Source of the DNA: a virus
Length of the DNA stretch: 64,000 nt
Reading direction: 5' to 3' (one strand)
Virus record (IMG/VR): IMGVR_UViG_3300021964_000014
Shown: piece by piece, positions 4,323 through 62,593 of the stretch
Layout: each line of letters begins with the position of its first letter
Position numbering within the stretch: the stretch's first letter is position 1
Program-made: the position numbers and the translations under genes
Notes under the pieces: model-generated
What the model saw: the letters and a program-made list of their open reading frames with translations, nothing else
Databases searched by the model: none
Told to the model about the DNA's origin: nothing

Positions 4323-5399
4323 TTAGAAGTTATAACTGAATCGTGGTAAGCCGTCTTTCATGTAGATAGAAATCTTAGTACCAACTGCATCTACTAATTT
4401 ATTTGCAGGTACTACAGCATAATTTCCAGACTTATCATCTAAGAAGAATATTTCTTCAAATTCTTCAGTTTCTGTATATAACTTTATCACTTTTTTAGAA
4501 AACGCTTGTTCTGCAGCATCTGCATCTATTTCGTTTCCTTTTTTATATTTCTTTAAACTAAAATCAGAAAAATCTATTCCTGGGTAGTTACTTCTTAATG
4601 CACCATCCATTGCATCTATCGATGCATCAATTTTATCACTTTCTTGTTCTGCTACAACTGCAAGGATTGTGTTTAATCTATGTAAAGGTCTTTTACCTTT
4701 AGTATCTACTTGAATAGGATTATCTAATTTTGAATTAACTGCTGATATAGCATCCTGTATAAATTTCTTATCAGTATTTTTACCAAATTGAGCTTTTTGG
4801 CCCATTGGTATAGCTCCTCTATTTTTTACTTCAATACCTTTCTTACCAACTCCAACATCACCAGAAGGAGTATCTCCATTAACATCTGCTGTTAAAGCAC
4901 ATAGAAAAACCTCTCCTTTACCTGTAGCTACATTACCTATTTGAGGTTTGATATCGAATAAAAAATTAATCGTTTCATCTGAGAATAATTTTTTAAATTT
5001 TTCTTTTAAGTTACCAGAGGAACCTAAATCAGCATAAGTTATAGCACCGTCGGTAATATACTTATGATATGTTTGAATATCTCCATTTTCTACCATTCTG
5101 TTATAAATGGTTTTAGAAATAGAAGCTACTGATTTGCCTTGTTTATCTAAGAACGATAGTACATCATCCTTATAGGCTACACCAGATATACCGTTGAGTA
5201 TAGATTTTAATTGTTCCGGAGAAAACTCTCCTTTTTGTATGGCATCAATAACTTCTGCTTTAGATATTTGTCCATCTGCATTAGTTAATTCAGCAATTAA
5301 TTTATCTAATATTGCTTTATCTTCAGCATTATCCATAGATGGAGTACCTGTTTTAGATCTCCATGCCCATTCTGTATATAATCTATCTGTTACGTTCAT
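4323..5399 (-). CDS. Putative PD-(D/E)XK (restriction-endonuclease fold) protein with N-terminal EWAWR leader
   Basis: GKGE...GDVGVGKKGIEVK resembles the E...(P)D...ExK catalytic pattern. Confidence 0.5.
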   Translation of the reverse strand: MNVTDRLYTEWAWRSKTGTPSMDNAEDKAILDKLIAELTNADGQISKAEVIDAIQKGEFSPEQLKSILNGISGVAYKDDVLSFLDKQGKSVASISKTIYNRMVENGDIQTYHKYITDGAITYADLGSSGNLKEKFKKLFSDETINFLFDIKPQIGNVATGKGEVFLCALTADVNGDTPSGDVGVGKKGIEVKNRGAIPMGQKAQFGKNTDKKFIQDAISAVNSKLDNPIQVDTKGKRPLHRLNTILAVVAEQESDKIDASIDAMDGALRSNYPGIDFSDFSLKKYKKGNEIDADAAEQAFSKKVIKLYTETEEFEEIFFLDDKSGNYAVVPANKLVDAVGTKISIYMKDGLPRFSYNF

Positions 5400-7522
5400 T
5401 ATGCTTCTGGTTCTTCTGCTGGTTCTTCAAAATCAACTGGTTCTCCTGTTAAGTCAGCTCCACCTTCTTCACCGCCTTCTTCTCCTCCAAGGTCGTCAAC
5501 TCCTAGATCGTCTCCACCACCTCCGGCAGCATCATCTCCAGGAAAATCACCTCCACCGCCTCCAGAAGAGCCTCCTGAATCTACATCAGCAGCTTCTCCT
5601 TCTCCGGCTCCGGTCATTGGACCTTCTTTGTATAATACAGCTAATTTATCTAACGCTTGTTGATAATCGTTTATTTTGTCGATATAAAATCTTTTACCCA
5701 TTATTTGAGCTTGGAATCCAGTACCGGTCCATTTTAAGATATAATCTTGACCGTTCTTTAAGTTGATTCTAAATTCAGTAGGTCTTGGAGAAATCCAATC
5801 TACACTATCAACAAATTCTTTAAAGTCTTCTGTTTGTAGTTTTATAATAGCTGCTTGTAGTGTAGGAAATTTAGCTAGTATTTGATCTGTAGCATCTTCC
5901 AGTACTGTATCTTTAGGAGCTTCTTCATCACCTTCTTCTTCAGGTTCTGGCTCTTCTTCTTCTTTAATATCGTCTAATAGACTTTCTGCTAAACTAAGTT
6001 TACCTTCTTTATAGTAGTCTGGATCTTCATAGTAATCGTCTTCTTCTCTTCTACGTTGTTCGTAGTCGGTATAATCATCATATCTATCTTCATCACTTTG
6101 AGCGTAATTTAATAAGTCGTTTAACGCAGCACTATTATGTAATCTAGGATTTATAATTCTAAGTGTATTAGGATGAGTATCACCTCTTCCTGTGAAGAGT
6201 TCGTAATCTATACCTTCTTCATATTTCTTTTTTAAATAATCTACAACAGCTTGTATTGCGTCTAAATCATATCCAAAATGAACTTCATCATTTGAATTTT
6301 CATTTATATCGTATCTTTGCAGTGCGCTCATTATACGATCAATTTTCTTATCTATATCATTAAGTATAGCTCCATAATCATCTGCAATTGGACCTCCTTC
6401 AGGTTCAGCTTCTTGCTCCATATTTCTTAAAACATCAGCTCTTTCGTCTTCTAAGTCTTGAAGTTTTAATCTCAAGTCCATAGCTTTCTCTAAACTGATA
6501 CCACGGGATTTAGGTGCTTTATCTTTAGGTTGTTGTGCTTTCATTCTAGCAGCTCTCACTTTGATAGCAACTGGATCGTTAATATCCATTCTTTCATTAA
6601 TCTTAGAAAAAGCTGATTCGATGCCTTCCATCATTCTTTGCATCTTAAGCAGATTATATTGCTCAGGTCTTTCTGTTCTTAGGTAGCTTTGTAATTTTCT
6701 AAAATTAGTTTTAGTTAATTCGAAAAACTCTCTAGCTGCTTGATCAGTTCTTATATCATCAGATCCCATTAGTTTTTTAATGTCACTTATAATATCTGAA
6801 AAGTTTTTATATAGAGATCCAAATGAAGGTAATTTAATTACCTTATGTCCTATAGAGCCTGTTTCTTTATTTTTTTCATATGTTTTAAAGTAAGTATCCA
6901 TATTAGAACTAAAGAAATCATGCTTACCGCCAAACATCGGTTCACCATATCTTTTAACAATACCAGCTCTTTGTTTATCTGTTAAGTCTTCCCACTGAGT
7001 AACTCTACTTCCAGCTTTCTTTTCCATGTCAGCTTTTGGCATTTCATCTATAGTACCAGAAGTATTTCCTCTATCTTTATAAAAGTCATGCTGTGCTTGT
7101 GCTTCTCGGCCTAAACCGCCCATCACATGATCAACTATGTCTTTTAAACCTTCAGCTGAAATAGCTACTGGTGTGTAGTTACCATCTGTCATATAAGAAT
7201 CGATTCCAACAACACCTGATTGTCCTGCTTTTCTCATTCCTGCTTTGATAGCATCTTTTTGATCAATTCTATAACCACTCATTCTACTGATTGTAAACTT
7301 ATCAGTGTCTTTATTATACTGGAATATTACTGCTTGAGGAGCTCTACCTTCACCTTTACTTACCATATAACCTTCTACTCCTTCTTTAGGCGGGTAACCA
7401 TCTGGTCTACGTTCTGTTAGGTCGTACCCTTTTGACTTAAAGTAATCAAATAATCGGCCACCATCCATTTCGTTAAGTAGCTGTCCGTAGGACTCTAATA
7501 TGAGTTTTTCTAATTTATGCAT
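5399..7522 (-). CDS. Multi-module acidic protein, putative head-packaged polyprotein
   Basis: N-terminal MHKLEKLILE tag; segments separated by LNE, IDE, INE, IKE; acidic Gly-rich tail. Confidence 0.55.
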   Translation of the reverse strand: MHKLEKLILESYGQLLNEMDGGRLFDYFKSKGYDLTERRPDGYPPKEGVEGYMVSKGEGRAPQAVIFQYNKDTDKFTISRMSGYRIDQKDAIKAGMRKAGQSGVVGIDSYMTDGNYTPVAISAEGLKDIVDHVMGGLGREAQAQHDFYKDRGNTSGTIDEMPKADMEKKAGSRVTQWEDLTDKQRAGIVKRYGEPMFGGKHDFFSSNMDTYFKTYEKNKETGSIGHKVIKLPSFGSLYKNFSDIISDIKKLMGSDDIRTDQAAREFFELTKTNFRKLQSYLRTERPEQYNLLKMQRMMEGIESAFSKINERMDINDPVAIKVRAARMKAQQPKDKAPKSRGISLEKAMDLRLKLQDLEDERADVLRNMEQEAEPEGGPIADDYGAILNDIDKKIDRIMSALQRYDINENSNDEVHFGYDLDAIQAVVDYLKKKYEEGIDYELFTGRGDTHPNTLRIINPRLHNSAALNDLLNYAQSDEDRYDDYTDYEQRRREEDDYYEDPDYYKEGKLSLAESLLDDIKEEEEPEPEEEGDEEAPKDTVLEDATDQILAKFPTLQAAIIKLQTEDFKEFVDSVDWISPRPTEFRINLKNGQDYILKWTGTGFQAQIMGKRFYIDKINDYQQALDKLAVLYKEGPMTGAGEGEAADVDSGGSSGGGGGDFPGDDAAGGGGDDLGVDDLGGEEGGEEGGADLTGEPVDFEEPAEEPEA

Positions 7523-7523
7523 A

Positions 7524-10181
7524 TTATTTGTTTTTCTTTTTGTAGTCTTTATGCCAGTGTTCTTTTTGAGTAACTATTTTAAGTTCTTCAACAGGAATAT
7601 CTTCTACTACTTTTTTACCTTCTTTAAATAATACGTCATAATGAGTAACAACATATTTATTTCCTTCTTTTATCAAAGTATGTTTCTCTGGAATGCAAAT
7701 ACCTTCTCCGTATGTTTCATGTACTACTTTCGCTGCACAATCGTGTTTATATCCAGGAGCTGATTCTTTGGATAGTTTATCTAAATACTTAGCTTGATCG
7801 CCATGTCCTTTAACAGACTTCTTTAATTGCTTTACAATCTTTTTAACGTCTTTCTTTTCTTTCTTATTTAATTCAGCTTCATTCTTTTCAGCTTTAGTAG
7901 CGTAAATAGCTTTTCTTTGAGCGTCAGATTTATACTTACCTTCATCCATATCATCTTCTTCTTCATCGTAATATTCTTGAATCTCTTCGATGATAGATTC
8001 TAATGTAGTGTCGTATCTATTAGAACTTGAACCGAAATCAAAGGCACCGTAAGCATCTCCTTTAGATAGCATTCTTGGAAACTTCTCTCTAACAATTTCT
8101 CTAGCTTCATCTCCTTTTTGAGCCAACTCATCTAAAATAGCTTGTAGATCATAGATAGCATTTTTTTGATCTGATGAAAGTTCTGTTAGTTCTTGTCCTT
8201 TATGAGTACCTGCTACTGCTTGATCTAAATGTTTTTCTAATTCTTTCTTTTTAGCAGTTAAATCTTTTAATTGATCTACTACTGATTTATCACCGGCTTT
8301 ATATTGCTTTGCTAATTCTTTCATCTTATTAACAACTTGACCGTATGCTTTTTGAATTTTAGCTGCTTTTATTTCATCCATATTTTTACGTCTTGGATAT
8401 TGAGTTGACATATCTCTTAAGTCACCAACAACTGATTGCATTGCTTTAGCTAATGTTTCAAACTGATCAGCAGTAACTTGAATATAATCTCCTCCAAATT
8501 CAGTTTGTGATGGTACTGTAATTTGTACCATTACTCCTTTTTTACCACCAGAGAATCTTTTTATTTGCATCCCTCCTTTATCGTATAATTCAGTACCTTC
8601 GTTAACTCCTTCTTCTAAAGCTAACTTATCAATAAGAGGCTGCTTTTCTTCTGAGTCTAAATAATGATATGCTGCAGACATATAATCTCTAGCTAAGATT
8701 AATTTCTTTTGCCACCAGTTAGGAAAATCTACTTCTCCGTCTACTTGATCATATTGAGCTAATTTCTTTGCTAATTTAGCAGCATAGGTAGCTGTTTCAA
8801 AAGCAGAAGACTTTAACATACTAGGCTCATCATCTTGATGTCCTACATCTAAATCTCCTCCTTGATCTTCTACTTCATTTTCTTTTAAGTACCCTAATTG
8901 TTTAGCATACTTATATCTCAATCTAGCATCATCACCAGGTCTTTTACCGAAAGTATAGTTAGGGTCTCTTCTAACTGAGATATCAATATCACTAGCAGCT
9001 TTAGAACCAAGTTTTTCTGTATCACTAAATCCTAGTGCATTTTCTTCAATTGATTCATCCATTTCGGCTGAATGATCTACTACTTCAATATCGTTAGCTT
9101 GTAGATCCATCACTACATCATTCATAAATCCACTTGGATCTTCGTCTGGTTCTTGATATAATTCTGGGTTTTCTTTTCCTTCTGGATCGTCATACATATC
9201 GTCGAATCCGTATTCATGTCTGAATATAAAGTATATAATTACGTTTCCTGCTCCGTCGTCGTCTACTACTTCTGTTTTTACGTAAGTTGGATCTACATTA
9301 TTATCTAAAATAGACATTGTCTTTTTGTAATCTCTTCTAGATACTTTTAAGTAATGGTGATCATCTCCTTCTCCTTCTTTAACTCCCACTTTATCTCTTT
9401 TAGCAAATACCTTTTCTTTGTCTTCATCAGATAGTTGACTAAAATCCTTACCCCCAAATTCTTTATGAGCAATTAAATCCAATCTATCTGTTTCTTCATG
9501 GCTCAACTCTCTACCTTTATAATTTACTTTTTCATTTAGAGATTTGAAGTGTTTTAATAGCTCATTTGCTAGTACATCAACGTTAACGATTGCCTCTCCT
9601 GAAGGTTTAACACCTACATTAACTAGCTCTTTGTCAAATGAAAAATCCACTAGGTGCAACGAATCGTCGCTAATATAAAAAGAAAATTCATCTTCTCCTC
9701 CTTCACCTTTGTATACTACTTGAATATCAAAACTATTGGTATCTATACGATGAGCTTTCATTCTAGCTAATTCATCACCAGCTTTTTTTAATGCTATAGC
9801 TAATGCCTTTCCTACTTGTGTAGCGATGGCTTTAGTCTCATTTTTATCGAATTCGACTCCTGAGGTTTTATCTAATTTATCCACTTCTTTTAGTTTTTGT
9901 CCTTTTGCAGAATCAATTCCAGTTATATTTGGATCTTTTTTAAGGTCCATAGCAGTTTTTCTATCCATTGCAACGGCTTTAGTATCGCCGCCTTTGGTAG
10001 AGATAAACATAGTTTCTTCTTTTTCTGCTAATTGCTTCTGTAGGGATTCTTTTATGGTAGTGAGTTGCTCTACTGTTTTAGTAGAGAAGTGTTTATCTAA
10101 TGCAGGTGACTTAGTAGAGTGAATGCTTTGCAAAGCGGATTCTACCTGCGTTAGACGGTTTTTGATTTCATCGTACGTCAT
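7524..10181 (-). CDS. Multi-module protein, putative head-packaged polyprotein
   Basis: About ten short segments joined by [LIVM]xE; C-terminal HDCAAKVVH...THYDVLF module; TATTTATA motif upstream. Confidence 0.55.
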   Translation of the reverse strand: MTYDEIKNRLTQVESALQSIHSTKSPALDKHFSTKTVEQLTTIKESLQKQLAEKEETMFISTKGGDTKAVAMDRKTAMDLKKDPNITGIDSAKGQKLKEVDKLDKTSGVEFDKNETKAIATQVGKALAIALKKAGDELARMKAHRIDTNSFDIQVVYKGEGGEDEFSFYISDDSLHLVDFSFDKELVNVGVKPSGEAIVNVDVLANELLKHFKSLNEKVNYKGRELSHEETDRLDLIAHKEFGGKDFSQLSDEDKEKVFAKRDKVGVKEGEGDDHHYLKVSRRDYKKTMSILDNNVDPTYVKTEVVDDDGAGNVIIYFIFRHEYGFDDMYDDPEGKENPELYQEPDEDPSGFMNDVVMDLQANDIEVVDHSAEMDESIEENALGFSDTEKLGSKAASDIDISVRRDPNYTFGKRPGDDARLRYKYAKQLGYLKENEVEDQGGDLDVGHQDDEPSMLKSSAFETATYAAKLAKKLAQYDQVDGEVDFPNWWQKKLILARDYMSAAYHYLDSEEKQPLIDKLALEEGVNEGTELYDKGGMQIKRFSGGKKGVMVQITVPSQTEFGGDYIQVTADQFETLAKAMQSVVGDLRDMSTQYPRRKNMDEIKAAKIQKAYGQVVNKMKELAKQYKAGDKSVVDQLKDLTAKKKELEKHLDQAVAGTHKGQELTELSSDQKNAIYDLQAILDELAQKGDEAREIVREKFPRMLSKGDAYGAFDFGSSSNRYDTTLESIIEEIQEYYDEEEDDMDEGKYKSDAQRKAIYATKAEKNEAELNKKEKKDVKKIVKQLKKSVKGHGDQAKYLDKLSKESAPGYKHDCAAKVVHETYGEGICIPEKHTLIKEGNKYVVTHYDVLFKEGKKVVEDIPVEELKIVTQKEHWHKDYKKKNK

Positions 10182-10220: not shown

Positions 10221-10850
10221 TTAACTCTCCCAAATAATGTTTTTAAACTTTTCAGGGGATAATCCAAAATAATCTGTTCTCCATTGAGTTTGATCAAAGA
10301 AATCTAAATTATACCATTGGTCTTTCTTTTTCCATAGCTTTTTAGCTATATCATCCCAATCTTGTTTAACAACGAATTCTTCAATTTCTTGTTTCTTTTC
10401 CATCACATGGCAGAAATTAAAAGAATCCCATTCATAGTGAAAAACTTCAAAAACTGCTTCTGGAGACACATAATCTATTGATATATCTATTCCCCATTTG
10501 GGTTTCATTTTAACTAATTTCCATAACATTGGATTATCTTCTTCAGCAATATGCTGTATTTGTTCTAATGCTGTGGAATAAAATCCTTTTCTTTCAAATA
10601 AGTCTGAATGGTTTATATGTGCTCCTTCTTTCTTATCCCAAGTAATCCAGTCGTATCTTAAACAATCTTCATGTCTTCTTTGGATAGGTTTAAAACCATT
10701 ATAAGTAAGAAAAGCCTGTTCGGCTTTTGTAAGGTGATAACCATTTTGATCAAATAAATCTACACAGTTGGGATCTTTTAGAGTTTCTATATCTTCAGTA
10801 GGGTCTAAAAAATAAGCATTTCGATGTAATTTATTATCTGTTATTTTCAT
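10221..10850 (-). CDS. Conserved hypothetical phage protein
   Basis: 209 aa, well-formed globular ORF (FDQNGYHLT, INHSDLFERKG, PKWGIDISIDY). Confidence 0.75.
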   Translation of the reverse strand: MKITDNKLHRNAYFLDPTEDIETLKDPNCVDLFDQNGYHLTKAEQAFLTYNGFKPIQRRHEDCLRYDWITWDKKEGAHINHSDLFERKGFYSTALEQIQHIAEEDNPMLWKLVKMKPKWGIDISIDYVSPEAVFEVFHYEWDSFNFCHVMEKKQEIEEFVVKQDWDDIAKKLWKKKDQWYNLDFFDQTQWRTDYFGLSPEKFKNIIWES

Positions 10851-11073
10851 TCTTTTTTCCTGATTTCATATTAGCACACCAATGATACATTTTTCCTTTC
10901 TCACCGCCGTACTTTTTAGCTTTTGCTCTCAAGCTAGTTACAGAACCTTTACAACTAGCTCCAGATTTTTTTACTCTACCTGGTCTAGATTTACCTTTAA
11001 CTTTACCATCTTTAAAGTTTTCATCTAATACTTCTTTTACGAGTTCTAATATTTGTGACTTTTTAAAGGGCAT
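10834..11073 (-). CDS. Small basic protein, putative internal head protein
   Basis: Leader ending LVKEVLDE followed by Lys-rich module NFKDGKVKGKSRPG...HWCANMKSG. Confidence 0.65.
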   Translation of the reverse strand: MPFKKSQILELVKEVLDENFKDGKVKGKSRPGRVKKSGASCKGSVTSLRAKAKKYGGEKGKMYHWCANMKSGKKNENNR

Positions 11074-12140: not shown

Positions 12141-12716
12141 CTACTCTACCTTACTCCGAAGGTATGTTATAAATTCTTGGAATTTGTCAGTATACATCTC
12201 TTTTGCCTTAGATTTATTAACCTTCCAGGTTTCTACATCACCCTGTTCAGTAACAAAAGAATCCTCTGCATTTAACATATCCTGTAGTTCTTGCTCTAGT
12301 TGAGCTATGAAAAATTCTATATTCCCTTTACGGGCATGTATTAAATAATTTTCATATTGACCGTTCCTTTTAAGTTCAGCTTCATAGTCAATAAAACAAT
12401 TGAAACACATTTTATTAACCTTATAAATCTTTTTACTCAAATGGTGAGACATAGACCCACTACATTTTGGACAAGCTAAAGGAACATGTACTGCTTTTTT
12501 AGCTTTATCTAATTTGGTGATGTTTTGCTTTAAACCATTTTTAATGGTCCACTGCTTTCCATTTTCTTCCCAGATATCTCCTTCCTCATGTCTAGTTGAT
12601 TGTCTATTATAGCCAGATTGATACTTAGTTTTAGACGTATAATCCTTATTAACTAAGTTTCTTATTCTCTCTACGTCTGATGGTCTAAACTCTTTTTTTA
12701 GAGCATTATCACTCAT
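12141..12716 (-). CDS. Hypothetical protein with CxxC...CxxC zinc site
   Basis: CPKC and CFNC pairs. Confidence 0.7.
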   Translation of the reverse strand: MSDNALKKEFRPSDVERIRNLVNKDYTSKTKYQSGYNRQSTRHEEGDIWEENGKQWTIKNGLKQNITKLDKAKKAVHVPLACPKCSGSMSHHLSKKIYKVNKMCFNCFIDYEAELKRNGQYENYLIHARKGNIEFFIAQLEQELQDMLNAEDSFVTEQGDVETWKVNKSKAKEMYTDKFQEFITYLRSKVE

Positions 12717-13299
12717 AACCTAATTCTTTTAGTCCTTGAATAGCAGGACCAATATCACCACCTTTAACTCTAAAAGCGATTCCTCCAGAAGCTATCCATT
12801 CTTTAATATTTGATTTTTTATCGTCTATAAGAATGCTATTTTCGTTAGCATATCTTTGTTTATCTGCTGAGTAAGCCATTATTACTTTAGGCTTAGGGTT
12901 TAAATTATTTTTAGCCCAGAGTTGTTTACCCAATCTAGATCCATTATCTCTAGAAGGAGAAGTTAAAAGGTCTGGTTTATATGGAGATATAAAGTTCCAT
13001 AATTCTTTACCTTGCGGCATCCAGTCCATTCCAACCCAAAACCCTATACCTACAATCTTATCAATAAAGTTCCAAAACTCCTCTATGCCGAATATAGCTT
13101 CAAAGTCTTTAGGTTTTACTACCTTCTGAATATCTTTCATAGGGTAATAATCAGGACCTACTTCATTAAGTTTTTGATGAAATCTCTTTTCGAAATCAGT
13201 TAGTACACCATCCATATCACAGTATATCTTGTAAGGAGGTACTTCTTTTTGTTCCGGAAGCGGATAAGCTTCTAATAAATCTACAATACTTGTATTCAT
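12709..13299 (-). CDS. HAD-family 5'(3')-deoxyribonucleotidase (NT5C-like)
   Basis: IYCDMDGVLTDF motif I, LLTSP motif II, K...ILIDD motifs III/IV. Confidence 0.85.
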   Translation of the reverse strand: MNTSIVDLLEAYPLPEQKEVPPYKIYCDMDGVLTDFEKRFHQKLNEVGPDYYPMKDIQKVVKPKDFEAIFGIEEFWNFIDKIVGIGFWVGMDWMPQGKELWNFISPYKPDLLTSPSRDNGSRLGKQLWAKNNLNPKPKVIMAYSADKQRYANENSILIDDKKSNIKEWIASGGIAFRVKGGDIGPAIQGLKELGYE

Positions 13300-13490: not shown

Positions 13491-15163
13491 TAACTATTCT
13501 TTAAATTATCTTCCCAGTTTCTAAAAGTTATATTGCCTAATGTATATGCTTCTTTTTCTAATTCTAATAACTTAGAATCAGCAGTAGTATCTTGTGTCTG
13601 TATATTATGTAAAGTACCTTGTAAGTTTTGCATATGATGAATCATTTCATGAGCATATGATCTTACAATATCTTTATCATGTCTTCCTAAGGTATATAAA
13701 ACTATTTCTCTAGCATTAGGATCGTAGTATGCTGTTTTACCAAAAAAGTTAGAAGCATTTGCTTCATCTTTTCTTAATTTAACTTCAGGTAAAGGTTCTA
13801 TATTCATTCCATTATCCAACATGTATTCTGTTAGAGAAGTAATATAGTCTTTGAGTTGAGGTTTGGATTGTTCTACACCTTCTTTCATTTCTGGATGAAA
13901 CATAAACTTAACAATGGTAGCATCTTTAGCTACTTCTTTACCGTCTATTTCTATTCCAATTGGATAAGGTTTAGTTTTATCATCTGCCCAATAAGCTACG
14001 TCGTAACTTTTATCTTCATTACTTGTTACTAATAGACCTCTATTGTATGTATCTTCTTCTGCTTGGAGTACAACCATTTTACCGGTAGGAAGAATCATAT
14101 CACCCATTAGTTTAATATCACCTTCGTCGTACCCGTCTTTATTATATCGATTTTCCTGTAAATTAGAAATATCAACAACCCATATTTGAGGGTCGATTCC
14201 ATTCTTTACTAATCCTGATAGTCTGGTATTACCAGCAACTAAGTCGTAATCGTTGTCAGAGAACTTAACAGCTATCGACATTTCGATTGTACCTCTTTTA
14301 AATGCGTCTAAGAATCTTTGTTTTTTAGGTTCTTCTAAACTATCAAAGTTGAGGTCTACATTTCCTAAGTTTCTTTTAATAGAACTATAAGAAACAGGTT
14401 TTCCTTTTTTAGCTATATTTAACCAACCTTCTTTACCCATTTTTACAAATTCTGGGTATCGGTTAGCTTCTTCCCATTCAGCATCAAAGTTAGGATTAGT
14501 GTATGTTATGTCTTTATTTTCATTAAAGTAACCTTCTACAAATCCTTCAATATTTGATCCTAATATTTCTGCTACTATTTTATCTTTCAAATCGTTTAAT
14601 ATATTTAATATTTCTTCTCTAGATAATTCTTCAGGGAAAAAATCTACAATTGTATCTAAATTACCAGATAGTATATTCTTTCTAAAATCTGTTGCTCTTA
14701 CTCCTGATCCAGGTGCTGATGCAAAAGCTAACCCTTGTACGTTATCAACGTTGTTAAATGTTGTAACTCTCCTTAGATCTACAAAGTCTTCTTCACCTCT
14801 TATCCCTGTTACTGCTACAAATTCACTTTCTGTATTTTCTCTTGCATAATCTTTAGCAGCAAACATTGGATTTTTTTGTCCATCTACTATTTCAACATTA
14901 CCTAGATGTTTCTTATAAATATTCCAAATATGAGTAGCTTCCTCTTTATCTATTCCATTTCTTTCTCCTCCACCTATAAAAATGATTACTTTATCTATTT
15001 TAGGTTTATTGTTATTATTACCTTTAAATAAACTTGAAGCTTTATCTTGGTAATCATCTTTATTATATAACGTACCATTATAAGAGCCGTCGAGTAAAGA
15101 TTTTACTACGTTAAAATGACCTCTATGAGGTGGTTTAAATGCTCCTGGGTATAATGCTATCAT
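13490..15163 (-). CDS. Fusion: HxGH nucleotidyltransferase + ParB-like module + unknown module + HExxH metallopeptidase-like domain
   Basis: YPGAFKPPHRGH at N-terminus; DLVAGNTRL (ParB-like); RSYAHEMIHHMQ...LEKEAY at C-terminus. Confidence 0.75.
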   Translation of the reverse strand: MIALYPGAFKPPHRGHFNVVKSLLDGSYNGTLYNKDDYQDKASSLFKGNNNNKPKIDKVIIFIGGGERNGIDKEEATHIWNIYKKHLGNVEIVDGQKNPMFAAKDYARENTESEFVAVTGIRGEEDFVDLRRVTTFNNVDNVQGLAFASAPGSGVRATDFRKNILSGNLDTIVDFFPEELSREEILNILNDLKDKIVAEILGSNIEGFVEGYFNENKDITYTNPNFDAEWEEANRYPEFVKMGKEGWLNIAKKGKPVSYSSIKRNLGNVDLNFDSLEEPKKQRFLDAFKRGTIEMSIAVKFSDNDYDLVAGNTRLSGLVKNGIDPQIWVVDISNLQENRYNKDGYDEGDIKLMGDMILPTGKMVVLQAEEDTYNRGLLVTSNEDKSYDVAYWADDKTKPYPIGIEIDGKEVAKDATIVKFMFHPEMKEGVEQSKPQLKDYITSLTEYMLDNGMNIEPLPEVKLRKDEANASNFFGKTAYYDPNAREIVLYTLGRHDKDIVRSYAHEMIHHMQNLQGTLHNIQTQDTTADSKLLELEKEAYTLGNITFRNWEDNLKNS

Positions 15164-16092
15164 GCTAAAAATGCTTGTACTTTTGAATCTATTTCTTTAG
15201 GAGTTGAATGCTGTAAAAGTTTTTGAAACTTTTCATTAAATAACATATCAGCTATATTATCTAAAACTTCAGTTTCTCTTTGATCTTGTTTTGCTTTTCT
15301 ATCTCTATACTTTTTTAGAACATCTCTCATTTTATCTAATCCAGGTCCTACTCCATTTTTATCATAAGCATCTTTAAATGCTTTCTTTAAAGCTCTATCT
15401 TCTCCGTACCCTTCTTTATCGTAATCTAAACTACCAATATGTTTTTTAAACTCTTCTTCTTCTTGAGTAGATAATTCAATAGGTTTTCTAAAAGTAGAAC
15501 CCCCTATATTGTTTGCTTCATTATATCTTTCTAAATAATCTTTAATACCAGAAGGTCCATTTTTTGCTGCTGTATTAAAAGCTTCTATTTCTTTACTATA
15601 TTTTCCTCCTCTATCGGAAACATGAATAGCTAAATTACCATTAGTAATTTTATCATATTCAGCAATTAGTTGGTAAACATTTCTCCAGGTTGAGAAGACA
15701 GCTGATCCGGGTACGTTTCTATCAGCTCTAGAAAAGTTAGAAATATAAGAAATCATAGGGTGAGTATACACCATTACCATGAATACATTATACCCTTTAT
15801 TAATTAGCTCATTAACCTTCTTAGGGTTAGAAGCTGTCGTATCCCATACAAAGCTAGTTCCTTTGTCTGATAGTTCCTCCGCCTCTTTGTCCGCTAGTCG
15901 AGCCCCTTGAGATAGATTGTTGTACGCTGGATGATCCTTGTCTTCCACGTATTTGTCTGGGTTGACTTGGGGGAGTGATGATAGGTTTAACTGGTTTAAC
16001 AGGTATGTTTTCCCTGCTCCAGCTCCTCCCGCCATTACTACCACTTTCGGGCCTGAGGTAGATTCTAGGATTAGATCTGTTAATTTGATCAT
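15160..16092 (-). CDS. P-loop kinase, Zeta-toxin/AAA_33-like
   Basis: MAGGAGAGKT Walker A, VNPD, FVWDTT, R..R.VP lid; N-terminal MIKLTDLILE tag. Confidence 0.75.
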   Translation of the reverse strand: MIKLTDLILESTSGPKVVVMAGGAGAGKTYLLNQLNLSSLPQVNPDKYVEDKDHPAYNNLSQGARLADKEAEELSDKGTSFVWDTTASNPKKVNELINKGYNVFMVMVYTHPMISYISNFSRADRNVPGSAVFSTWRNVYQLIAEYDKITNGNLAIHVSDRGGKYSKEIEAFNTAAKNGPSGIKDYLERYNEANNIGGSTFRKPIELSTQEEEEFKKHIGSLDYDKEGYGEDRALKKAFKDAYDKNGVGPGLDKMRDVLKKYRDRKAKQDQRETEVLDNIADMLFNEKFQKLLQHSTPKEIDSKVQAFLA

Positions 16093-18247: not shown

Positions 18248-18280
18248 ATAATATAAGAAGAATTAGTCTAAATATCAACT
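18248..18280 (-). promoter_or_regulatory. Bacteroidota-type promoter for primase operon
   Basis: AGTTG-N20-TATATTAT. Confidence 0.75.
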
Positions 18281-18696
18281 AATTTTAGATGTTTTTTCTG
18301 ATTTACCATAACATTTGAAGGTCTGATATCTAATTCATCAGGGTTTATTCCATATTGTTGAGCTTCTCTTTCTACTGCATCAATCCATTCTTCCGGAATG
18401 TTACCTTTAAACTCTCCTAAAACCTCCATTTGTATAATACCTAATTTAGGGTTAATAACTTCTACATCGTATATTCTAGCGAAGTTATTTGTTTTTTTAC
18501 CTTTAAGTAGTTGTGCGTGTTCTAATTCGATTTCGTCTGTAGTTACTTTATATACTCTGCCGTTAAGTAAATAAGCAGATCCGTAGTCACCTGAGCCGAG
18601 GTGCTTTCCTCCTTGATCTAGTATTTTATCAACCTGTTTTTCAAAATCAGGATCATAGTACAAAATCTCTCCTAATATAACATGTGATAATCTCAT
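18268..18696 (-). CDS. Minimal protein-kinase-like protein
   Basis: LGSGDYGSAY Gly loop, VYKVT Lys, E helix, LDIRPSNVM catalytic loop, KLVDI; ORF ends at the metal-binding Asp motif. Confidence 0.75.
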   Translation of the reverse strand: MRLSHVILGEILYYDPDFEKQVDKILDQGGKHLGSGDYGSAYLLNGRVYKVTTDEIELEHAQLLKGKKTNNFARIYDVEVINPKLGIIQMEVLGEFKGNIPEEWIDAVEREAQQYGINPDELDIRPSNVMVNQKKHLKLVDI

Positions 18697-18700
18697 ATCT

Positions 18701-19000
18701 TTAACTTACATCCATTGCATCATTGTGATCTGCTGCGTATCCTTTTTCTTTAAGTGCAGCCACAATTTGATCTAAAACGTCTATATCGTAGCTACTAGGA
18801 AGTTCTAATCCAGTTAAATCTTTTATAAACTTTTCTGCGTCGTCACCAAATCTAATTTTCTCTTTCCATTGTATATTAGCAGTTACTGGTTTATCGTATA
18901 AGTATATTCCGTAAAATCTTCCGTAATCAGTATATGTTATATCGATTCCTTTTATTTCAAAATCTACCTTAAACTCTAATATTACGCTACTTAACTTCAT
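18701..19000 (-). CDS. Hypothetical protein with MKLSSVILE leader
   Basis: 99 aa ORF in operon. Confidence 0.65.
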   Translation of the reverse strand: MKLSSVILEFKVDFEIKGIDITYTDYGRFYGIYLYDKPVTANIQWKEKIRFGDDAEKFIKDLTGLELPSSYDIDVLDQIVAALKEKGYAADHNDAMDVS

Positions 19001-19260
19001 TGTTTATATATTTTAACTTTAAGATCTCCAGTTCCTTTTATTAAACGGTGATAGGTCTCTTTTGGTATAAATAGTTTATTTTCAGATAATACCTGTGGAG
19101 TGTCGTTATCTAGTTGGAATTTCCAATCTGTTTGATGCATAGCTTGAACGATTCTATCTTCTTTATCTCTATGCCAAACAAATTCAAAAGCTGATGTGTT
19201 AGATGAAAATTCTCTAACTGTATATTCTTCTGTTACCGATTCTGTATAAGGCCTACTCAT
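18997..19260 (-). CDS. Small cupin-fold protein
   Basis: WHRDKEDR...WKFQLDN...FIPKETYHRLIKG; likely start MSRPY at 19260. Confidence 0.7.
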   Translation of the reverse strand: MSRPYTESVTEEYTVREFSSNTSAFEFVWHRDKEDRIVQAMHQTDWKFQLDNDTPQVLSENKLFIPKETYHRLIKGTGDLKVKIYKQ

Positions 19261-19824: not shown

Positions 19825-20610
19825 TTACCAGTACCCGGAGAAGTTAGAACTCCCCCCTAATGACTTCCAATATCTACCGATATTGCAAGACCAGTAACCG
19901 GCTTTAGTTTTATCTTTTTTCTGTGCACATTTATGTCTAGCGGCAAAAGATGCTCTTGCACCTTTCTTTTTAAACTTAACTGATAATCCAGTATCACCGA
20001 ATGATACTTTCTTTACGTTACCTTTTTTAGATTTAACATAGACGTAGAATTTTTTACTCCCACCTCTTTTAGGTTTGTTAAGTTGAACTTTTTTACCTTT
20101 ATATTCAGCTTCAGGAATATATTCTACAGAAGCTTTTAACATTTCAAAGCCGTTATAATCGAAAGATTCGTTTTGTAGGGATACTGCTTTTCTAAACTTA
20201 TCCATATTCATCTGACCTCCGATAGATTCTACTAACTCTTTTATTAAGTCATAATCAATCATTTCATCTATTGAAGCAGCTTCATCGATAGTATCTTCAT
20301 TTTCGATCATTTCATCGATTAGGTTACCGATTTCAAACATTGGATTGTAGTTTGGAGATACCATTGGAAGATCTAAAGGAACTCTCATTCCATTATATTC
20401 TGCGTATTCTCCAATATCAGTAGTTTCTAATAGTAGAGTATCTTGTTCATTTAATTCTATTTTACCGTCTCTCCATGCTTCTCTAGCTTCTTTAAATAGT
20501 TGTATAAAGCTATCAGAGCTATAACGGTAGACATGCTCAGATAAGGTTAGACCATTATCTAAATGGTATTTTAATGATGGGTAGCCGATAAGTTCTTTTA
20601 ATTGTATCAT
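19825..20610 (-). CDS. Acidic N-terminal region plus basic C-terminal module, putative internal head protein
   Basis: MIQLKELIG leader; repeated IDE/IE/LVE; IPE|AEYKGKKVQLNKP...SFAARHKC...AGYWSC module. Confidence 0.65.
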   Translation of the reverse strand: MIQLKELIGYPSLKYHLDNGLTLSEHVYRYSSDSFIQLFKEAREAWRDGKIELNEQDTLLLETTDIGEYAEYNGMRVPLDLPMVSPNYNPMFEIGNLIDEMIENEDTIDEAASIDEMIDYDLIKELVESIGGQMNMDKFRKAVSLQNESFDYNGFEMLKASVEYIPEAEYKGKKVQLNKPKRGGSKKFYVYVKSKKGNVKKVSFGDTGLSVKFKKKGARASFAARHKCAQKKDKTKAGYWSCNIGRYWKSLGGSSNFSGYW

Positions 20611-21089
20611 TGGTTGAAATCTTTTCTATAAAATTTTCCTAAAACATTGTCATTAATGTAAACGCCATCTTGTTCTAGTACTTCATTTATAAATAGGTAT
20701 TTACATTCAAAATATGTTAATTGCTTTTTATTCTGAACATAATGTAGAATTTTTCTTTCAAAGTCCATTGGAGTTCCTTCTTTAACTAATCTAAGTATCT
20801 CTTTATGAGAACCGTAATAGTCGTTCCAATCTGATTCGGTTATTATTTTTTGTTTGAGCGGTACTCTTCCTCCAATACCTTTAGCTTTTCTTTCCTCTCT
20901 TAAAGCTTCTAAAGCTCTTTTACCTAACCTTTTATTGCGTTCAAAAAATAATACTTTCTTTCCTAAGTATTTTTTACCGCTAGGTCTATGAGTAGTTTCG
21001 TAAATAAATCCATACGTGCCTTTTGGCATGTCTGATATTTCATTTACTATTTTTCCATTAAATGTCCAACCGGGTACTGTTACCATCAT
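20607..21089 (-). CDS. GIY-YIG endonuclease (Seg/EndoII-like)
   Basis: YGFIYETT...KKYLGKK, ESDWNDYYGS, YINDN. Confidence 0.75.
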   Translation of the reverse strand: MMVTVPGWTFNGKIVNEISDMPKGTYGFIYETTHRPSGKKYLGKKVLFFERNKRLGKRALEALREERKAKGIGGRVPLKQKIITESDWNDYYGSHKEILRLVKEGTPMDFERKILHYVQNKKQLTYFECKYLFINEVLEQDGVYINDNVLGKFYRKDFNQ

Positions 21090-47598: not shown

Positions 47599-48039
47599 CT
47601 ATATTAAACCTGCTTTTTGTTTATCTTTTTCTTCAGAAGCTTTCAATACAGCTCCTGCTTTTTTTACAAAATCTAAATTAGAGATGTCTAAACCTGGTTG
47701 TTGTCCTGCTCCTCTACCCATTTGAGTAGCCATAGTAGATGCCATATTAGGCATTCCTGTTACCATGTCAGAAGTACCAGAGAATACATTTTTGTATTCT
47801 TCGTTAGTCATATTACTTTTTGTCATCTCTAACATCTGTTCAATTGATGTTTTACCCATTTGTGGGTTCATCTTTGTTGGAGTTGCTGGTTTAGCAACTA
47901 CTTGTTTGTATTCGGTAGCTACCTTTACATTAGGGGTGCTAGCGGCTCTAACTGCTTCGTTCATTACATCTTGTAACTCTTCCTTCACAGCTGATCTGAC
48001 TTCTTCACGAATAATTTTACGTAATTGATCTAGTTTCAT
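47599..48039 (-). CDS. Hypothetical protein with MKLDQLRKIIREE leader
   Basis: TATTTATT late-like motif directly upstream. Confidence 0.65.
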   Translation of the reverse strand: MKLDQLRKIIREEVRSAVKEELQDVMNEAVRAASTPNVKVATEYKQVVAKPATPTKMNPQMGKTSIEQMLEMTKSNMTNEEYKNVFSGTSDMVTGMPNMASTMATQMGRGAGQQPGLDISNLDFVKKAGAVLKASEEKDKQKAGLI

Positions 48040-52707: not shown

Positions 52708-53202
52708 TTATTCTTCTTTAGGGTTATAACGTTTACCAAGTCTCCCTATAACAGCTTTAGCCTCTTCAACACCTATTCGGAAGAACTCTCTACTCTTATT
52801 CACTCTATATGAGTCAAGGTACCCGTGTACTTCTTGCTCTAAGTCGTGACCATTGTAGCAAGGGTAGGCGTATTCTACTATAAAGTCTTGAGCGACACCG
52901 GTAGCAGCATTGATTTGTTTAGCTCTCTTATCAGGTAAGTTCTTTGTGAAACCTATCTTACATAATCCAGGCATTGACTCATTAGTAAGTACATATACGT
53001 ATTGTTTATCAGAATTAGGTGTATATTGTAATGTTCTGGACCTATTCGTATAATACGTTACTGATTCCCAACCATCTTCTGCTGTGTACTGAGTACCAGT
53101 ACTGGGAGTTAAAGTAAAGTAAGAGGGATCGGCTCCGGTGAAATCATCAGAGACTTTGATAAACTGTTGAGCTTCTTCTATTGATATTCTTTTTAAACCC
53201 AT
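52708..53202 (-). CDS. T5orf172-family GIY-YIG domain protein
   Basis: YVYVLTNESMPGLCKIGFT...RAKQI...TGV...EQEVH...REFF. Confidence 0.85.
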   Translation of the reverse strand: MGLKRISIEEAQQFIKVSDDFTGADPSYFTLTPSTGTQYTAEDGWESVTYYTNRSRTLQYTPNSDKQYVYVLTNESMPGLCKIGFTKNLPDKRAKQINAATGVAQDFIVEYAYPCYNGHDLEQEVHGYLDSYRVNKSREFFRIGVEEAKAVIGRLGKRYNPKEE

Positions 53203-58227: not shown

Positions 58228-58390
58228 CTATTTCTAATATTTTATAACCTACTACTCTTCTATGCCTACCGTATTGCTCCATTGACCATTCTATTCTATC
58301 AGTTTCTAATTCTAATTCATAGACTTCAACGGAGTTACCGGAGCTTTCGCTTACTTTGATTTTATATTTCTTAGTACTCTCCATTTTCAA
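58190..58390 (-). CDS. Hypothetical protein
   Basis: LETDRIEWSMEQYGRHR motif. Confidence 0.6.
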   Translation of the reverse strand: MKMESTKKYKIKVSESSGNSVEVYELELETDRIEWSMEQYGRHRRVVGYKILEIDGVIQTNDSSSL

Positions 58391-58568
58391 GTCTCCAATT
58401 ATTAACTCTGATTGCTTTCTTCTTCTGCTTTCTCTTAACTACAGAAGGTTTTTCAAAGAATTTTCTATCTCTAATTTCTTTGATTAATTTAGTACTACGT
58501 ACTTTCTGCTTAAACCTTTTAAGCGCTTTGGCGATGTTGTCTCCTTTTTTTAATTTTACTATAAGCAT
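58371..58568 (-). CDS. rpsU: Ribosomal protein bS21 (phage-encoded)
   Basis: MLIV...GDNIAKALKRFKQK...EIRDRKFFEKPSVVKR, Bacteroidota-type N-terminus. Confidence 0.93.
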   Translation of the reverse strand: MLIVKLKKGDNIAKALKRFKQKVRSTKLIKEIRDRKFFEKPSVVKRKQKKKAIRVNNWRLENGEY

Positions 58569-61342: not shown

Positions 61343-61345
61343 AGG

Positions 61346-61354: not shown

Positions 61355-61369
61355 GTATTTTATTTAATG

Positions 61370-61817: not shown

Positions 61818-61996
61818 AATGAATAAACTTTATCGCTACCATTAGCTAAAACCAAACAGTTCTCCGAATCGATAACGTATTGATTCATACCTCTATATTC
61901 AATAAGAGTACATTTAGTTTTTACAGGATTATTATCTGGGAAGCTGAGCCCATCCATGTAAAATTCTTCTCCAACTTTCATATCACTTAATACCAT
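61814..61996 (-). CDS. Hypothetical protein
   Basis: Promoter and ATAAAGGTTATG leader upstream. Confidence 0.7.
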   Translation of the reverse strand: MVLSDMKVGEEFYMDGLSFPDNNPVKTKCTLIEYRGMNQYVIDSENCLVLANGSDKVYSL

Positions 61997-62025
61997 AACC
62001 TTTATTTTAACTTTTTAATTATACC

Positions 62026-62058
62026 TTAATATAAGAAGAATAATGCAGAAAAGCAACT
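62026..62058 (-). promoter_or_regulatory. Bacteroidota-type promoter
   Basis: AGTTG-N20-TATATTAA. Confidence 0.8.
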
Positions 62059-62068
62059 ACTTACTAAG

Positions 62069-62593
62069 TTATTTTGTATTAGGTTTCCCCATCATAACCT
62101 TAGTGTGTATTTTTGCTCCTAACTTTCTATCATAAGTACCATCTCCATTCCATTTGATATCCTTACCTTTGAGAGCTTTCCTAACTGTCTCTTCATCATC
62201 AACGATTGCTACTCCTTTTGCTTTTAGAATATCTAATATCTTTCCGGAAACTTCTATGTAGTATCCTTTTTTACTTAAGTCGTCAACTGTTTTAGCGACT
62301 GCAGCTGATCTTGCAGGTTTAGTACCATCATGGCCCATAGCAACTAACTTCTTTCCTCCTGCTCTATTCTTATATGTTACTGTAGCATCGTCTTCTGGAT
62401 CATCATCAAGATCGATAACTGAATAATTATCTCCTGCAGATTTTATATCATCAGGACTAGTCACATTAGGATGGCCGCCAAGAGGAGCATAAGCATTATC
62501 GATAAGTTTAAATAGTTCTTCTTTATCGTCTGCTATCTCTGCTGATGATAATGGTCTCCAGCTCTGCTCTAATAGTATCTTAGTTAACTTCAT
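62069..62593 (-). CDS. Hypothetical protein with MKLTKILLE leader
   Basis: 174 aa globular ORF. Confidence 0.7.
   Translation of the reverse strand: MKLTKILLEQSWRPLSSAEIADDKEELFKLIDNAYAPLGGHPNVTSPDDIKSAGDNYSVIDLDDDPEDDATVTYKNRAGGKKLVAMGHDGTKPARSAAVAKTVDDLSKKGYYIEVSGKILDILKAKGVAIVDDEETVRKALKGKDIKWNGDGTYDRKLGAKIHTKVMMGKPNTK

Follow-up and report, generated by a model that had tools for sequence, protein, structure and literature searches.

A 64,000-nucleotide stretch of DNA from an uncultured marine T4-like phage (the window; its genes and proteins are named by start coordinate, as in w7522) encodes proteins with unrelated bodies that begin with a common short peptide, raising the question of what this peptide does. 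An earlier note had listed eight carriers and regarded the peptide as a portable tag for loading enzymes into the phage head. Membership was examined with a nine-column profile trained on 20 families from related contigs, the window being excluded. The eight N-termini, each encoded on the minus strand, agree with the note, and five of them (starts 7522, 16092, 18696, 19000 and 62593) fit the profile with 15.4–21.5 bits, whereas w20610, w48039 and w13299 did not (Table 1). The scores were bimodal, with the sixth-best N-terminus of the window at 1.3 bits, and the best of 19,213 internal positions reached 12.7 bits, below each of the five. The peptide is specific to N-termini and begins at Met1 in all five proteins. 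Two complete relatives displayed the same split, with six tagged proteins each and runners-up at 11.4 and 5.4 bits. The consensus is M-(x)-K-L-x-x-[I/L/V]-[I/L]-L-(x)-E, given for the relatives as M-(x)-K-L-x-x-[IL]-[IL]-L-(x)-E. The stricter pattern of the earlier note occurred at three N-termini and one internal site (20,266 residues; 0.01 expected); the internal match, at the C-terminus of a 3191-residue fibre, was rejected as an unrelated chaperone-domain motif.

Table 1. Features of the window, with tag positions and profile scores
Feature	Coordinates	Strand	N-terminus or element (position)	Score (bits)	Description
Portal gene	812..2701	-			T4-type portal protein, gp20 family (Pfam Portal_T4, E 2.1e-68)
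Terminase gene	2744..4318	-			Large terminase subunit (PHROG 2, E 5.5e-48)
w7522	5399..7522	-	MHKLEKLILE (7493-7522)	17.8	Cargo 5, 707-aa acidic modular protein
w13299	12709..13299	-	MNTSIVDLLEAY		Non-member, 196-aa HAD-type 5'-3' deoxyribonucleotidase (PHROG 2643, E 9.7e-20)
w16092	15160..16092	-	MIKLTDLILE (16063-16092)	21.5	Cargo 1, 310-aa P-loop kinase, polynucleotide-kinase / zeta-toxin fold
w18696	18268..18696	-	MRLSHVILGE (18667-18696)	15.4	Cargo 2, 142-aa minimal protein-kinase-like protein
w19000	18701..19000	-	MKLSSVILE (18974-19000)	15.7	Cargo 3, 99-aa acidic protein
Element	19066..19073	-	TATTTATA (context ACTATTTATAC)		Within the preceding ORF, 73 nt upstream of the tagged w19000
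w20610	19825..20610	-	MIQLKELIGYPS (MIQLKELIG)		Doubtful member, 261-aa protein; tag-like head without Glu
w48039	47599..48039	-	MKLDQLRKIIREEV (MKLDQLRKIIREE in the earlier note)		Non-member, 146-aa protein, just upstream of baseplate wedge genes
w62593	62069..62593	-	MKLTKILLE (62567-62593)	21.5	Cargo 4, 174-aa protein

Concerning the three remaining proteins, the head of w20610 has the form K/Q-L-x-x-hydrophobic-hydrophobic and is absent from the 14 top-scoring N-termini of the window. Its family has a conserved N-terminus of its own, MI[KQ]LK[DE][IV][IV]G, and the motif [LI]xE is enriched 3.4-fold in its body, opposite to the tagged cargo. w48039 was rejected as a tag carrier, as it fails the profile and belongs to a second recurrent N-terminal class, MKKSQLxxxVKEVLEE; sequences similar to it are MKKSQLREIIRKEL and MKKSQLRQIIKEAL in phage immuto and MKKSQLVKAVREVLEE, a 73-residue head-module protein of relatives, and the neighbouring genes w47597 and w47190 encode baseplate wedge subunits. 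The nucleotidase w13299, which had been proposed as a weaker carrier, is out of register and fails the profile, and its body shows no depletion of [LI]xE (observed/expected (O/E) 1.51), so that it is not counted as tagged cargo. A signal peptide or lipoprotein signal was also rejected as an explanation of the tag itself. Such signals need a basic N-terminus followed by a stretch of at least 10 hydrophobic residues, while the hydrophobic residues of the tag number three or four before the Glu is reached; genuine signal-like N-termini, MKRIITLLCFLFAF for example, gave low profile scores.

The bodies that follow the tag were then compared. After removal of the first 12 residues, profile-profile comparison revealed 3 related pairs among 24 tagged clusters, in agreement with the view that the bodies are unrelated. 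Among the 128 related viral contigs compared, about 20 families begin with the tag, and past it no similarity between them could be detected; within families it is near-invariant, and variability is highest in the five residues that follow it. The kinase w16092 matches Pfam Zeta_toxin (E 8.8e-13), and the best Foldseek matches of its AlphaFold2 model are polynucleotide kinase, zeta/PezT and AvrRxo1. The pLDDT of this model is 89.5 overall and below 50 for residues 1-11, with the fold starting at residue 16. Some homologues of the kinase are leaderless; they start at strand 1 and have the P-loop at residues 7-15 (mostly 8-11), compared with 20-23 in tagged kinases. Immediately downstream of the w16092 gene come, in this order, an HxGH nucleotidyltransferase gene, a 46-codon ORF and a nucleotidase gene; neither of the two enzymes is tagged. 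For w18696, all of the best 50 Foldseek matches in the PDB were protein kinases. The invariant residues of its family alignment are G36, D37, Y38 and G39 (Gly-rich loop), K50, E57, D123, N128 and D141, and its AlphaFold2 model has a pLDDT of 73 overall and 35 for residues 1-10. In these two otherwise confident models, pLDDT stays below 50 for residues 1-11 or 1-12. The two predicted structures and the leaderless homologues show the tag to be a flexible add-on before otherwise unrelated folds. As for the other cargo, w19000 had no match in Pfam, PHROG or Atlas, and w62593 none in family searches. w7522 is the second gene in the run w10181, w7522, w5399 and large terminase, with the portal gene next, and its orthologues range from about 240 to 760 residues with variable modules.

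The architecture of the tag resembles that of the T4 capsid targeting sequence. In T4 IPIII, residues 4 and 7 determine targeting and residues 8 and 10 processing (PMC9026906), and the head protease gp21 cuts after Glu in I/L-x-E (PMC12991175). The T4 sequence spans about 10 residues from Met1, with hydrophobic residues at 4 and 7 followed by (I/L)-x-Glu10, and MIKLTDLILE likewise presents L4, L7, I8 and E10. In the profile, Leu occupies the equivalent of residue 4 in 92% of cases, and Ile, Leu or Val the equivalent of residue 7 in 100%. When sequences were selected on K-L-x-x-hydrophobic-hydrophobic alone, ignoring the Glu, 205 of the 206 obtained contained [LI]xE, and in 204 of these 205 the Glu stood at residue 9 or 10; among untagged families, 19% have [LI]xE within residues 5-13. 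The same motif is depleted in the bodies of 17 tagged families (pooled O/E 0.58, median 0.45) relative to 79 untagged families (pooled 1.21, median 1.05; Mann-Whitney p = 1e-4). No depletion was found in tagged bodies for the control motifs [LI]xD, [LI]xQ, [LI]xK and Ex[LI]. In T4 itself this signature is weak, and Alt is not depleted. Site depletion in cargo bodies provides a second, independent signature that could be applied to other phages.

The machinery expected of such a system is present in this phage group, which has a T4-type portal, a gp23 capsid protein and a gp21-type protease. The portal protein of the window is 72% identical to that of Flavobacterium phage immuto and marks a head-morphogenesis module that runs past the left end of the window. 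As the window ends one gene past the portal gene, its own protease and scaffold genes are not visible and are known from relatives. Peptidase_S77 was detected in three relatives (E 1e-30 to 1e-37). A relative's protease is 37% identical to T4 gp21 and keeps the segments GELDHP and GISSRG, holding His85 and Ser140, the catalytic residues of gp21 (PMC12991175). L084 and L002 lie on one contig; the kinase of L002 is 91% identical to that of the window, and in L084 the protease gene is followed by a gene for a tagged 176-residue protein. In five lineages, a tagged acidic protein of about 175 residues is encoded immediately behind the protease, between the protease and scaffold genes.

Taking into account the T4-type head machinery, the architecture of the tag, its occurrence on about 20 families and the avoidance of the protease motif in their bodies, we consider it probable that the tag is a portable capsid-targeting propeptide, the functional counterpart of T4 MKTYQEFIAE, in a Far-T4-like myovirus of marine Bacteroidota. 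The proposal of the earlier note is supported to this extent. As the five unrelated proteins share an N-terminal peptide ending in a T4-type head-protease site, it is probable that the capsid takes them up and that they are injected, like the T4 internal proteins. The tag is a flexible appendage of 9-10 residues ahead of unrelated folds. Its two conserved hydrophobic positions, by analogy with T4 residues 4 and 7, may bind the scaffolding core of the prohead, with the result that the cargo would be enclosed by the shell. The gp21-type serine protease would cut after the Glu of the terminal (I/L)-x-E and free the mature protein in the head, and the cargo would be injected with the DNA and act before any phage gene expression. 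The set carried by this phage would comprise the polynucleotide-kinase/zeta-like P-loop kinase, the minimal protein-kinase-like enzyme, two small proteins and the 707-residue acidic modular protein.

Three of the tagged genes lie inside a replication and nucleotide-metabolism block, a location that a cytoplasmic pathway would fit too. This location, together with the untagged nucleotidyltransferase and nucleotidase genes downstream of the kinase gene, raises the possibility that the tag serves as a leader for docking to, or recognition by, another shared partner in the cytoplasm, such as a modifying enzyme of the RiPP-like kind, a chaperone, or a replisome or nucleotide-synthesis hub. We regard this as unlikely. 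The tagged genes have no candidate partner gene linked to them; the only constant neighbours in the flanks of 128 loci are the genes for primase, an exonuclease and a GIY-YIG endonuclease. With respect to a RiPP-like maturase, the annotated neighbours and larger protein clusters at the 128 flanking loci gave no sign of a radical SAM/SPASM gene, and the radical-SAM genes of the complete relatives G001 and G002 are more than 20 kb from every tagged gene. A docking function also leaves unexplained why (I/L)-x-Glu should be obligatory at residue 9 or 10, why the motif is specifically depleted in the bodies and why a tagged protein is encoded between the protease and scaffold genes.

An even less probable explanation is that the tagged proteins are cut by the head protease without being packaged, the tag being a timing device through which a late cut after Glu toggles them in the cytoplasm. 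The (I/L)-x-Glu end and the depletion in the bodies would fit any exposure to this protease, and a host protein in the cytoplasm can be a target of T4 gp21 (PMC12991175). However, a cleavage site needs three residues, and the six that precede it (K, L, two variable and two hydrophobic) are equally conserved, at the positions used for targeting in T4. The same tag heads a protein of the head module, and the loss of 9-10 disordered residues is unlikely to alter a fold that starts at residue 16. That the similarity stems from nucleic acid or chance, through an A/T-rich start region without a Shine-Dalgarno sequence, a recombination linker or the commonest residues of an AT-rich genome, is highly improbable, for although K, L, I and E are common here and most starts have no Shine-Dalgarno sequence, codon usage and the profile contradict it: the conservation is at the protein level, with synonymous codon usage and variability in 202 distinct tag DNA sequences like those of the bodies, the DNA upstream of tagged genes is not conserved, no internal position scores as high in the bimodal profile distribution, and 6 pairs of N-termini in the window score at least 26, where internal control segments give 0.3 such pairs on average.

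The capsid-targeting propeptide that we favour can be compared with several known systems. T4 has the same gp21-type protease, gp20 portal and gp23 capsid protein, and its targeting sequence is likewise common to proteins with unrelated mature parts, in a fast-changing locus where the tag alone is kept. On the other hand, the sequences differ, being MKLSxIILE or MxKLxxLILE here and MKTYQEFIAE in T4. No homology to MKTYQEFIAE was found; the pattern alone is common to both, and the matching residues are Met1, Glu10 and, in two of the five window tags, Ile8. With so few matches, the tag would be a functional analogue or a very distant relative rather than a copy. The tags here also differ at synonymous sites, whereas those of T4 ipII and ipIII are identical in DNA; as a control, the same N-terminal similarity script applied to T4 ranked ipII and ipIII at the top. 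To our knowledge, work on the T4 capsid targeting sequence has been confined almost entirely to T-even phages, where its cargo is a few small basic proteins. The T4 internal proteins are small, basic and not enzymes, whereas the cargo here is mostly acidic or neutral (pI 4.5-7.0) and includes a P-loop kinase and a protein-kinase-like protein, a difference that stands as a counterpoint to capsid loading. Here about 20 families of putative cargo occur across the relatives, 5-6 per genome. A closer match is the propeptide of the T4 vertex protein gp24, MAKINELLRE as read from the genome, whose pattern M-x-K-hydrophobic4-x-acidic-L7-hydrophobic8-x-E10 agrees nearly position for position with MIKLTDLILE. 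Both this propeptide and that of Alt, MELITELFDE, whose pattern differs from the tag, are removed by gp21. Unlike the cargo, gp24 is a shell protein, and no tagged gp24 counterpart was identified in this analysis. Alt demonstrates that an enzyme can be packaged and injected.

In the phiKZ-like giant phages, the cleavage motif is S/A/G-x-E. In members such as 201phi2-1 and SPN3US, a gp21-related protease cuts the propeptides of inner-body or ejection proteins after Glu, and these propeptides are thought to target many proteins into the head, including subunits of the virion RNA polymerase (PMC5694885). They are mostly longer than 100 residues, unlike one short common tag. The Dar antirestriction proteins of phage P1 are loaded into the head via N-terminal signals, with involvement of DarA and Hdf, and injected to counter host defence (PMC9024508, PMC12810830); the P1 head is of a type unrelated to that of T4. 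Our literature search found no virion proteome for the tag-bearing phage group or phage immuto.

The tagged genes are exchanged as cassettes at a fixed locus. In 59 related loci we found 40 arrangements, and the two genes immediately preceding the primase gene nearly always carried the tag. Across relatives, these two slots hold at least eight unrelated tag-keeping families. In the window, w19000 occupies slot A, which in the 59 loci holds members of at least six unrelated tagged families, and w18696 occupies slot B, upstream of the primase gene. The cargo set turns over quickly, the slots being refilled by unrelated families that keep the tag. Sister lineages carry at least two further tag types, MNNFDLKKFLxENKL and the MKKSQLxxxVKEVLEE of w48039. 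It is conceivable, although we put it slightly below an even chance, that an abundant clade of marine Bacteroidota phages practises plug-and-play injection, in which an address tag and a two-slot cassette locus allow fast exchange of effectors, a minimal 142-residue protein kinase and a polynucleotide-kinase/zeta-like kinase strike the host at infection, and the further tag types of sister lineages hint at multiple address codes working in parallel, each for its own site or fate within the prohead. If the tag works like that of T4, the mechanism would be old and widespread in the T4 superfamily, and uncultured ocean Bacteroidota phages would inject enzymes, kinases among them, from fast-changing cassettes. 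Sequence alone would then suffice to list the effectors that uncultured phages deploy in the first minute, which are likely to serve counter-defence or host takeover, and the short natural tag could serve to load proteins into capsids of phages other than those of E. coli.

Upstream of w19000 lies the element TATTTATA, a candidate late promoter, judged from sequence, common to structural genes. It occurs 21-36 nt before the portal gene, w10181, w37312, w32900 and w39105, and precedes w10181 in 100% of relatives. A further copy, at 62609-62616, lies 23 nt upstream of w62593, the distance found before structural genes. The element is present upstream of 36-73% of the members of slot-A tagged families, while in the primase, exonuclease and nucleotidase families next to them the figure is 0-1%, and its median distance is 76 nt before tagged genes and 18 nt before structural genes. 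The nucleotidase gene w13299 is preceded by another promoter-like element, TTCTTATATT.

All eight N-termini quoted in the earlier note are present in the window as claimed. The strict pattern given there matched three N-termini, against an expectation of 0.01, and one internal site among 20,266 residues, which is the chaperone-domain motif at the giant fibre's C-terminal end. N-terminal 11-mers were also compared all against all, without bias, with internal segments as the control; six N-terminal pairs scored 26 or higher, internal segments averaged 0.3 such pairs, and the top non-paralogous pairs were the tagged proteins. A nine-column profile of the tag, trained on 20 tagged families from the related loci (128 loci fetched from IMG/VR contigs) with the window excluded, gave 21.5 bits for both the P-loop kinase w16092 (window proteins are named by start coordinate) and w62593, 17.8 for w7522, 15.7 for w19000 and 15.4 for the kinase-like protein w18696. 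The next N-terminus scored 1.3 bits. In the profile comparison of N-termini with internal positions proposed in the earlier note, five N-termini thus reached at least 15.4 bits versus an internal maximum of 12.7 over 19,213 window positions. The tag therefore stands for these five of the eight listed proteins, while w20610, w48039 and w13299 fell below the profile class. The same split of scores was found in the two complete relatives from which genome-wide counts were taken, G001 (169,750 bp) and G002 (191,416 bp), with six tagged proteins apiece.

The T4 capsid targeting sequence is MKTYQEFIAE, in which residues 4 and 7 are the main determinants of targeting and residues 8 and 10 those of processing (PMC8442874, PMC9026906). 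The T4 protease gp21 cleaves after Glu within I/L-x-E (PMC12991175). The tag MIKLTDLILE has L4, L7, I8 and E10, and the shorter MKL form presents this pattern displaced by one residue. The T4 gp24 propeptide, MAKINELLRE, fits the tag pattern nearly position for position. As a control, the same N-terminal similarity script was applied to the T4 genome, and ipII and ipIII ranked first. When tagged sequences were selected on K-L-x-x-hydrophobic-hydrophobic alone, ignoring the Glu, 205 of 206 possessed [LI]xE with Glu at residue 9 or 10; among untagged families, 19% have [LI]xE in residues 5-13.

A gp21-type protease is known from the relatives, the window's own protease gene lying beyond the window. 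Peptidase_S77 (T4 gp21) proteins are encoded in three related records (E 1e-30 to 1e-37). The G001 protease shares 37% identity with T4 gp21 and retains GELDHP and GISSRG, which contain His85 and Ser140, the residues named as catalytic (PMC12991175). The capsid protein matches gp23 and gp24. In five lineages, one of them a contig with a kinase 91% identical to w16092, the protease gene is followed directly by a gene for an acidic, tag-headed protein of ~175 aa. In other lineages this position is occupied by a protein with another recurrent N-terminus, or directly by the scaffold gene.

Cargo sharing a prohead with a protease active on (I/L)-x-Glu would be expected to avoid this motif in its body, the part after the tag. 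In the bodies of 17 tagged families, we counted 92 [LI]xE sites versus 158 expected from shuffles (O/E 0.58, median 0.45), as against an O/E of 1.21 (median 1.05) in 79 untagged families (Mann-Whitney p = 1e-4). Depletion was not seen in tagged bodies for the control motifs [LI]xD, [LI]xQ, [LI]xK and Ex[LI]. The nucleotidase w13299 cannot be retained as a tagged protein; besides its score below the profile class, its family displays an O/E of 1.51, with no depletion. In T4 itself, IPII and IPIII have no internal [LI]xE site. The single site in IPI, ITE at residues 17-19, is its processing site. As depletion was not seen in Alt, the T4 control is at best weakly positive. The w20610 family, whose tag-like start is without Glu and whose basic C-terminal domain matches PHROG 7595, is enriched in [LI]xE 3.4-fold (109 observed versus 32 expected, 12 members), within its acidic middle. 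The w20610 protein could be a core protein that is cut up by the protease, freeing the basic domain. The w10181 and w7522 families (window 5399-10181) displayed no enrichment in [LI]xE relative to composition-matched shuffles (O/E 1.28 and 0.82).

The head machinery, the T4-like pattern and the motif depletion support the capsid-targeting reading of the earlier note, with putative packaging, cleavage and injection of the tagged proteins. We consider it likely that the tag is a capsid-targeting signal of the T4 kind; it would then belong to an established kind, and the types of cargo would be new. An alternative is a cytoplasmic switch timed by protease cleavage. This would account for the Glu of the tag, but leaves both the conserved residues before the Glu and the tagged head-module protein unaccounted for, and we regard it as highly improbable. 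A leader for a linked maturase was rejected, as no maturase gene was noticed near the tagged genes in the 128 loci, and in G001 and G002 more than 20 kb separates the radical-SAM genes from every tagged gene.

The tag occurs in 202 distinct DNA versions, with synonymous codon proportions equal to those of the gene bodies, and conservation was not seen in the DNA upstream of tagged genes, indicating that the tag is conserved at the protein level. A nucleic-acid or chance origin, contradicted by this codon usage and by the bimodality of the profile scores, is excluded. Clustering of 2,369 proteins from the window and the loci revealed more than 20 clusters, with protein lengths of 63 to 762 aa, in which nearly every member is headed by the tag. 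The claim that the bodies are unrelated proved sound, as profile-profile comparison of 24 tagged clusters without their first 12 residues detected just three related pairs. The K, L, hydrophobic, hydrophobic, L and E positions hardly vary inside a family, and the five residues after the tag are the most variable stretch of the protein. In the predicted structures of w16092 (pLDDT 89.5) and w18696 (pLDDT 73), the tag is a free appendage. Only the first 11 or 12 residues, together with two short loops near the C-terminus of w18696, have values below 50, and the kinase fold of w16092 begins at residue 16. A homologue search with the kinase covered 1.84 billion representatives (50% level). It recovered homologues of two kinds: some begin directly at strand 1, with the P-loop at residues 7-15, mostly 8-11, and others carry the leader and have the P-loop at residues 20-23. 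A scan of viral contigs with P0229, for the context of distant tagged kinases, gave no match. The unrelated families, the variable linker, the free N-termini in the models and the leaderless homologues together identify the tag as an add-on of ~12 residues.

Among the tagged proteins, w16092 is a P-loop kinase (Zeta_toxin, E 8.8e-13) with Foldseek matches to polynucleotide kinase, zeta/PezT and AvrRxo1. The w18696 product is a minimal protein-kinase-like protein. Its conserved residues occupy the kinase positions (Gly-rich loop, Lys, Glu, catalytic Asp and Asn, metal-binding Asp) and its best 50 PDB fold matches are all protein kinases; a PDB sequence search gave no match. For w19000 and w62593, there was no family match and no lead from Atlas searches. 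The w7522 protein is acidic and modular, and its gene lies in the run w10181, w7522, w5399 and terminase, after which comes the portal gene.

The stretch from the w20610-family gene to the primase gene shows 40 arrangements in 59 loci. The last two genes before the primase gene are almost always tagged, slot A holding one of at least six unrelated tagged families and slot B a 63-aa family or a 142-aa kinase-like family; in the window, the slots are occupied by w19000 and w18696, respectively. T-even internal proteins are a highly diverse set with the targeting sequence alone in common (PMC3012670), and the cassette behaviour of the tagged genes agrees with this diversity. A SegE-type endonuclease at the locus might drive cassette exchange.

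The T4 late promoter TATAAATA was rejected as a promoter in the window, as it occurs once, within a gene. Upstream of the portal gene, w10181, w37312, w32900 and w39105, the element TATTTATA stands at a distance of 21-36 nt. For tagged w62593 the distance is 23 nt, and for w19000, w20610 and w16092 it is 73-134 nt. Among the relatives, 80-100% of the portal, post-portal, w10181 and w37312 orthologues have the element upstream, as do 36-73% of the members of slot-A tagged families, compared with just 0-1% of the primase, exonuclease and nucleotidase orthologues. We infer that TATTTATA is a candidate late promoter. In the window, both the primase gene and the nucleotidase gene are preceded by another promoter-like element, TTCTTATATT (listed also as TTTTTCTTATATT), which is conserved before 82% of primase orthologues but just 1% of nucleotidase orthologues. 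TTTTTCTTATATT also stands before several small genes at the window's right end, and several copies are followed by ATAAAGGTT, directly before ATG. It is probably an early or host-type promoter.

The window has a G+C content of 33%, every long ORF is on the minus strand, and a Shine-Dalgarno sequence is missing at most gene starts. The nearest cultured phage is the Flavobacterium myovirus vB_FspM_immuto (portal identity 72%), followed by Microcystis phage Mel-JY01 (48%) and Rhodothermus phage RM378 (33%). Phage immuto is the sole phage record matching both w7522 and the portal. Megablast of 8 kb of the window against 50,697 phage records, and tblastn with w16092, gave no match. Related IMG/VR contigs number in the hundreds, and the phage presumably fits the uncultured 'Far-T4' group, tied to Bacteroidota. 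A T5orf172/MUG113 protein in the window is likely another mobile endonuclease.

Features of the window and its relatives
Feature	Record	Coordinates	Strand	Match or remark
Portal, T4-type	window			Pfam Portal_T4, E 2.1e-68
Large terminase	window
Baseplate wedge proteins	window			gp25-like and gp6-like
Fibre	window			3191 aa
Primase	window			DnaG-type
Exonuclease	window
w11073	window	10834-11073	minus	third N-terminal class
w20610	window	19825-20610	minus
SegE-type GIY-YIG homing endonuclease	window	20607-21089		Pfam E 6.8e-25; conserved at upstream edge of cassette locus
w48039	window	47599-48039	minus
T5orf172/MUG113 domain protein	window	52708-53202		GIY-YIG-like, E 9.4e-18
bS21 ribosomal protein, phage-encoded	window	58371-58568		Pfam Ribosomal_S21, E 3.9e-16
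tRNA-Arg, anticodon TCT	window	63113-63187	minus	just upstream of w63053
TTTTTCTTATATT	window	13341, 18259, 21104, 53231, 55057, 59376, 59819, 62037	minus	first base
Second N-terminal class	L087	12269-14600
Second N-terminal class	L098	20011-20472, 21096-21521
Second N-terminal class	L141 (phage immuto)	3186-3734, 17011-18311, 24621-24848
Second N-terminal class	G002	92937-93182
Third N-terminal class, 73-aa genes	L084	17160
Third N-terminal class, 73-aa genes	L100	17288
Third N-terminal class, 73-aa genes	L121	16889

Two further N-terminal peptides recur in the relatives, and they are the main tag classes in the 42 kb of phage immuto that the analysis covered. The second class, M(x)N(N)FDL(K/R)KFL(V/T)ENKLTxNS, ~20 residues in length, heads proteins of 75-333 aa, with 38 N-terminal versus 7 internal matches in the related loci; it was not found in the window or G001. 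At times, four such genes directly follow the w7522 orthologue as a tandem array, and the class adjoins the protease gene in some relatives. The third class, MKKSQLxxxVKEVLEE, heads a 73-aa protein; in the relatives, the gene for this protein always lies two positions upstream of the protease gene. The class also occurs on several phage immuto proteins. In the window it is present on w11073, displaced by two residues, and w48039 probably belongs to the same class.
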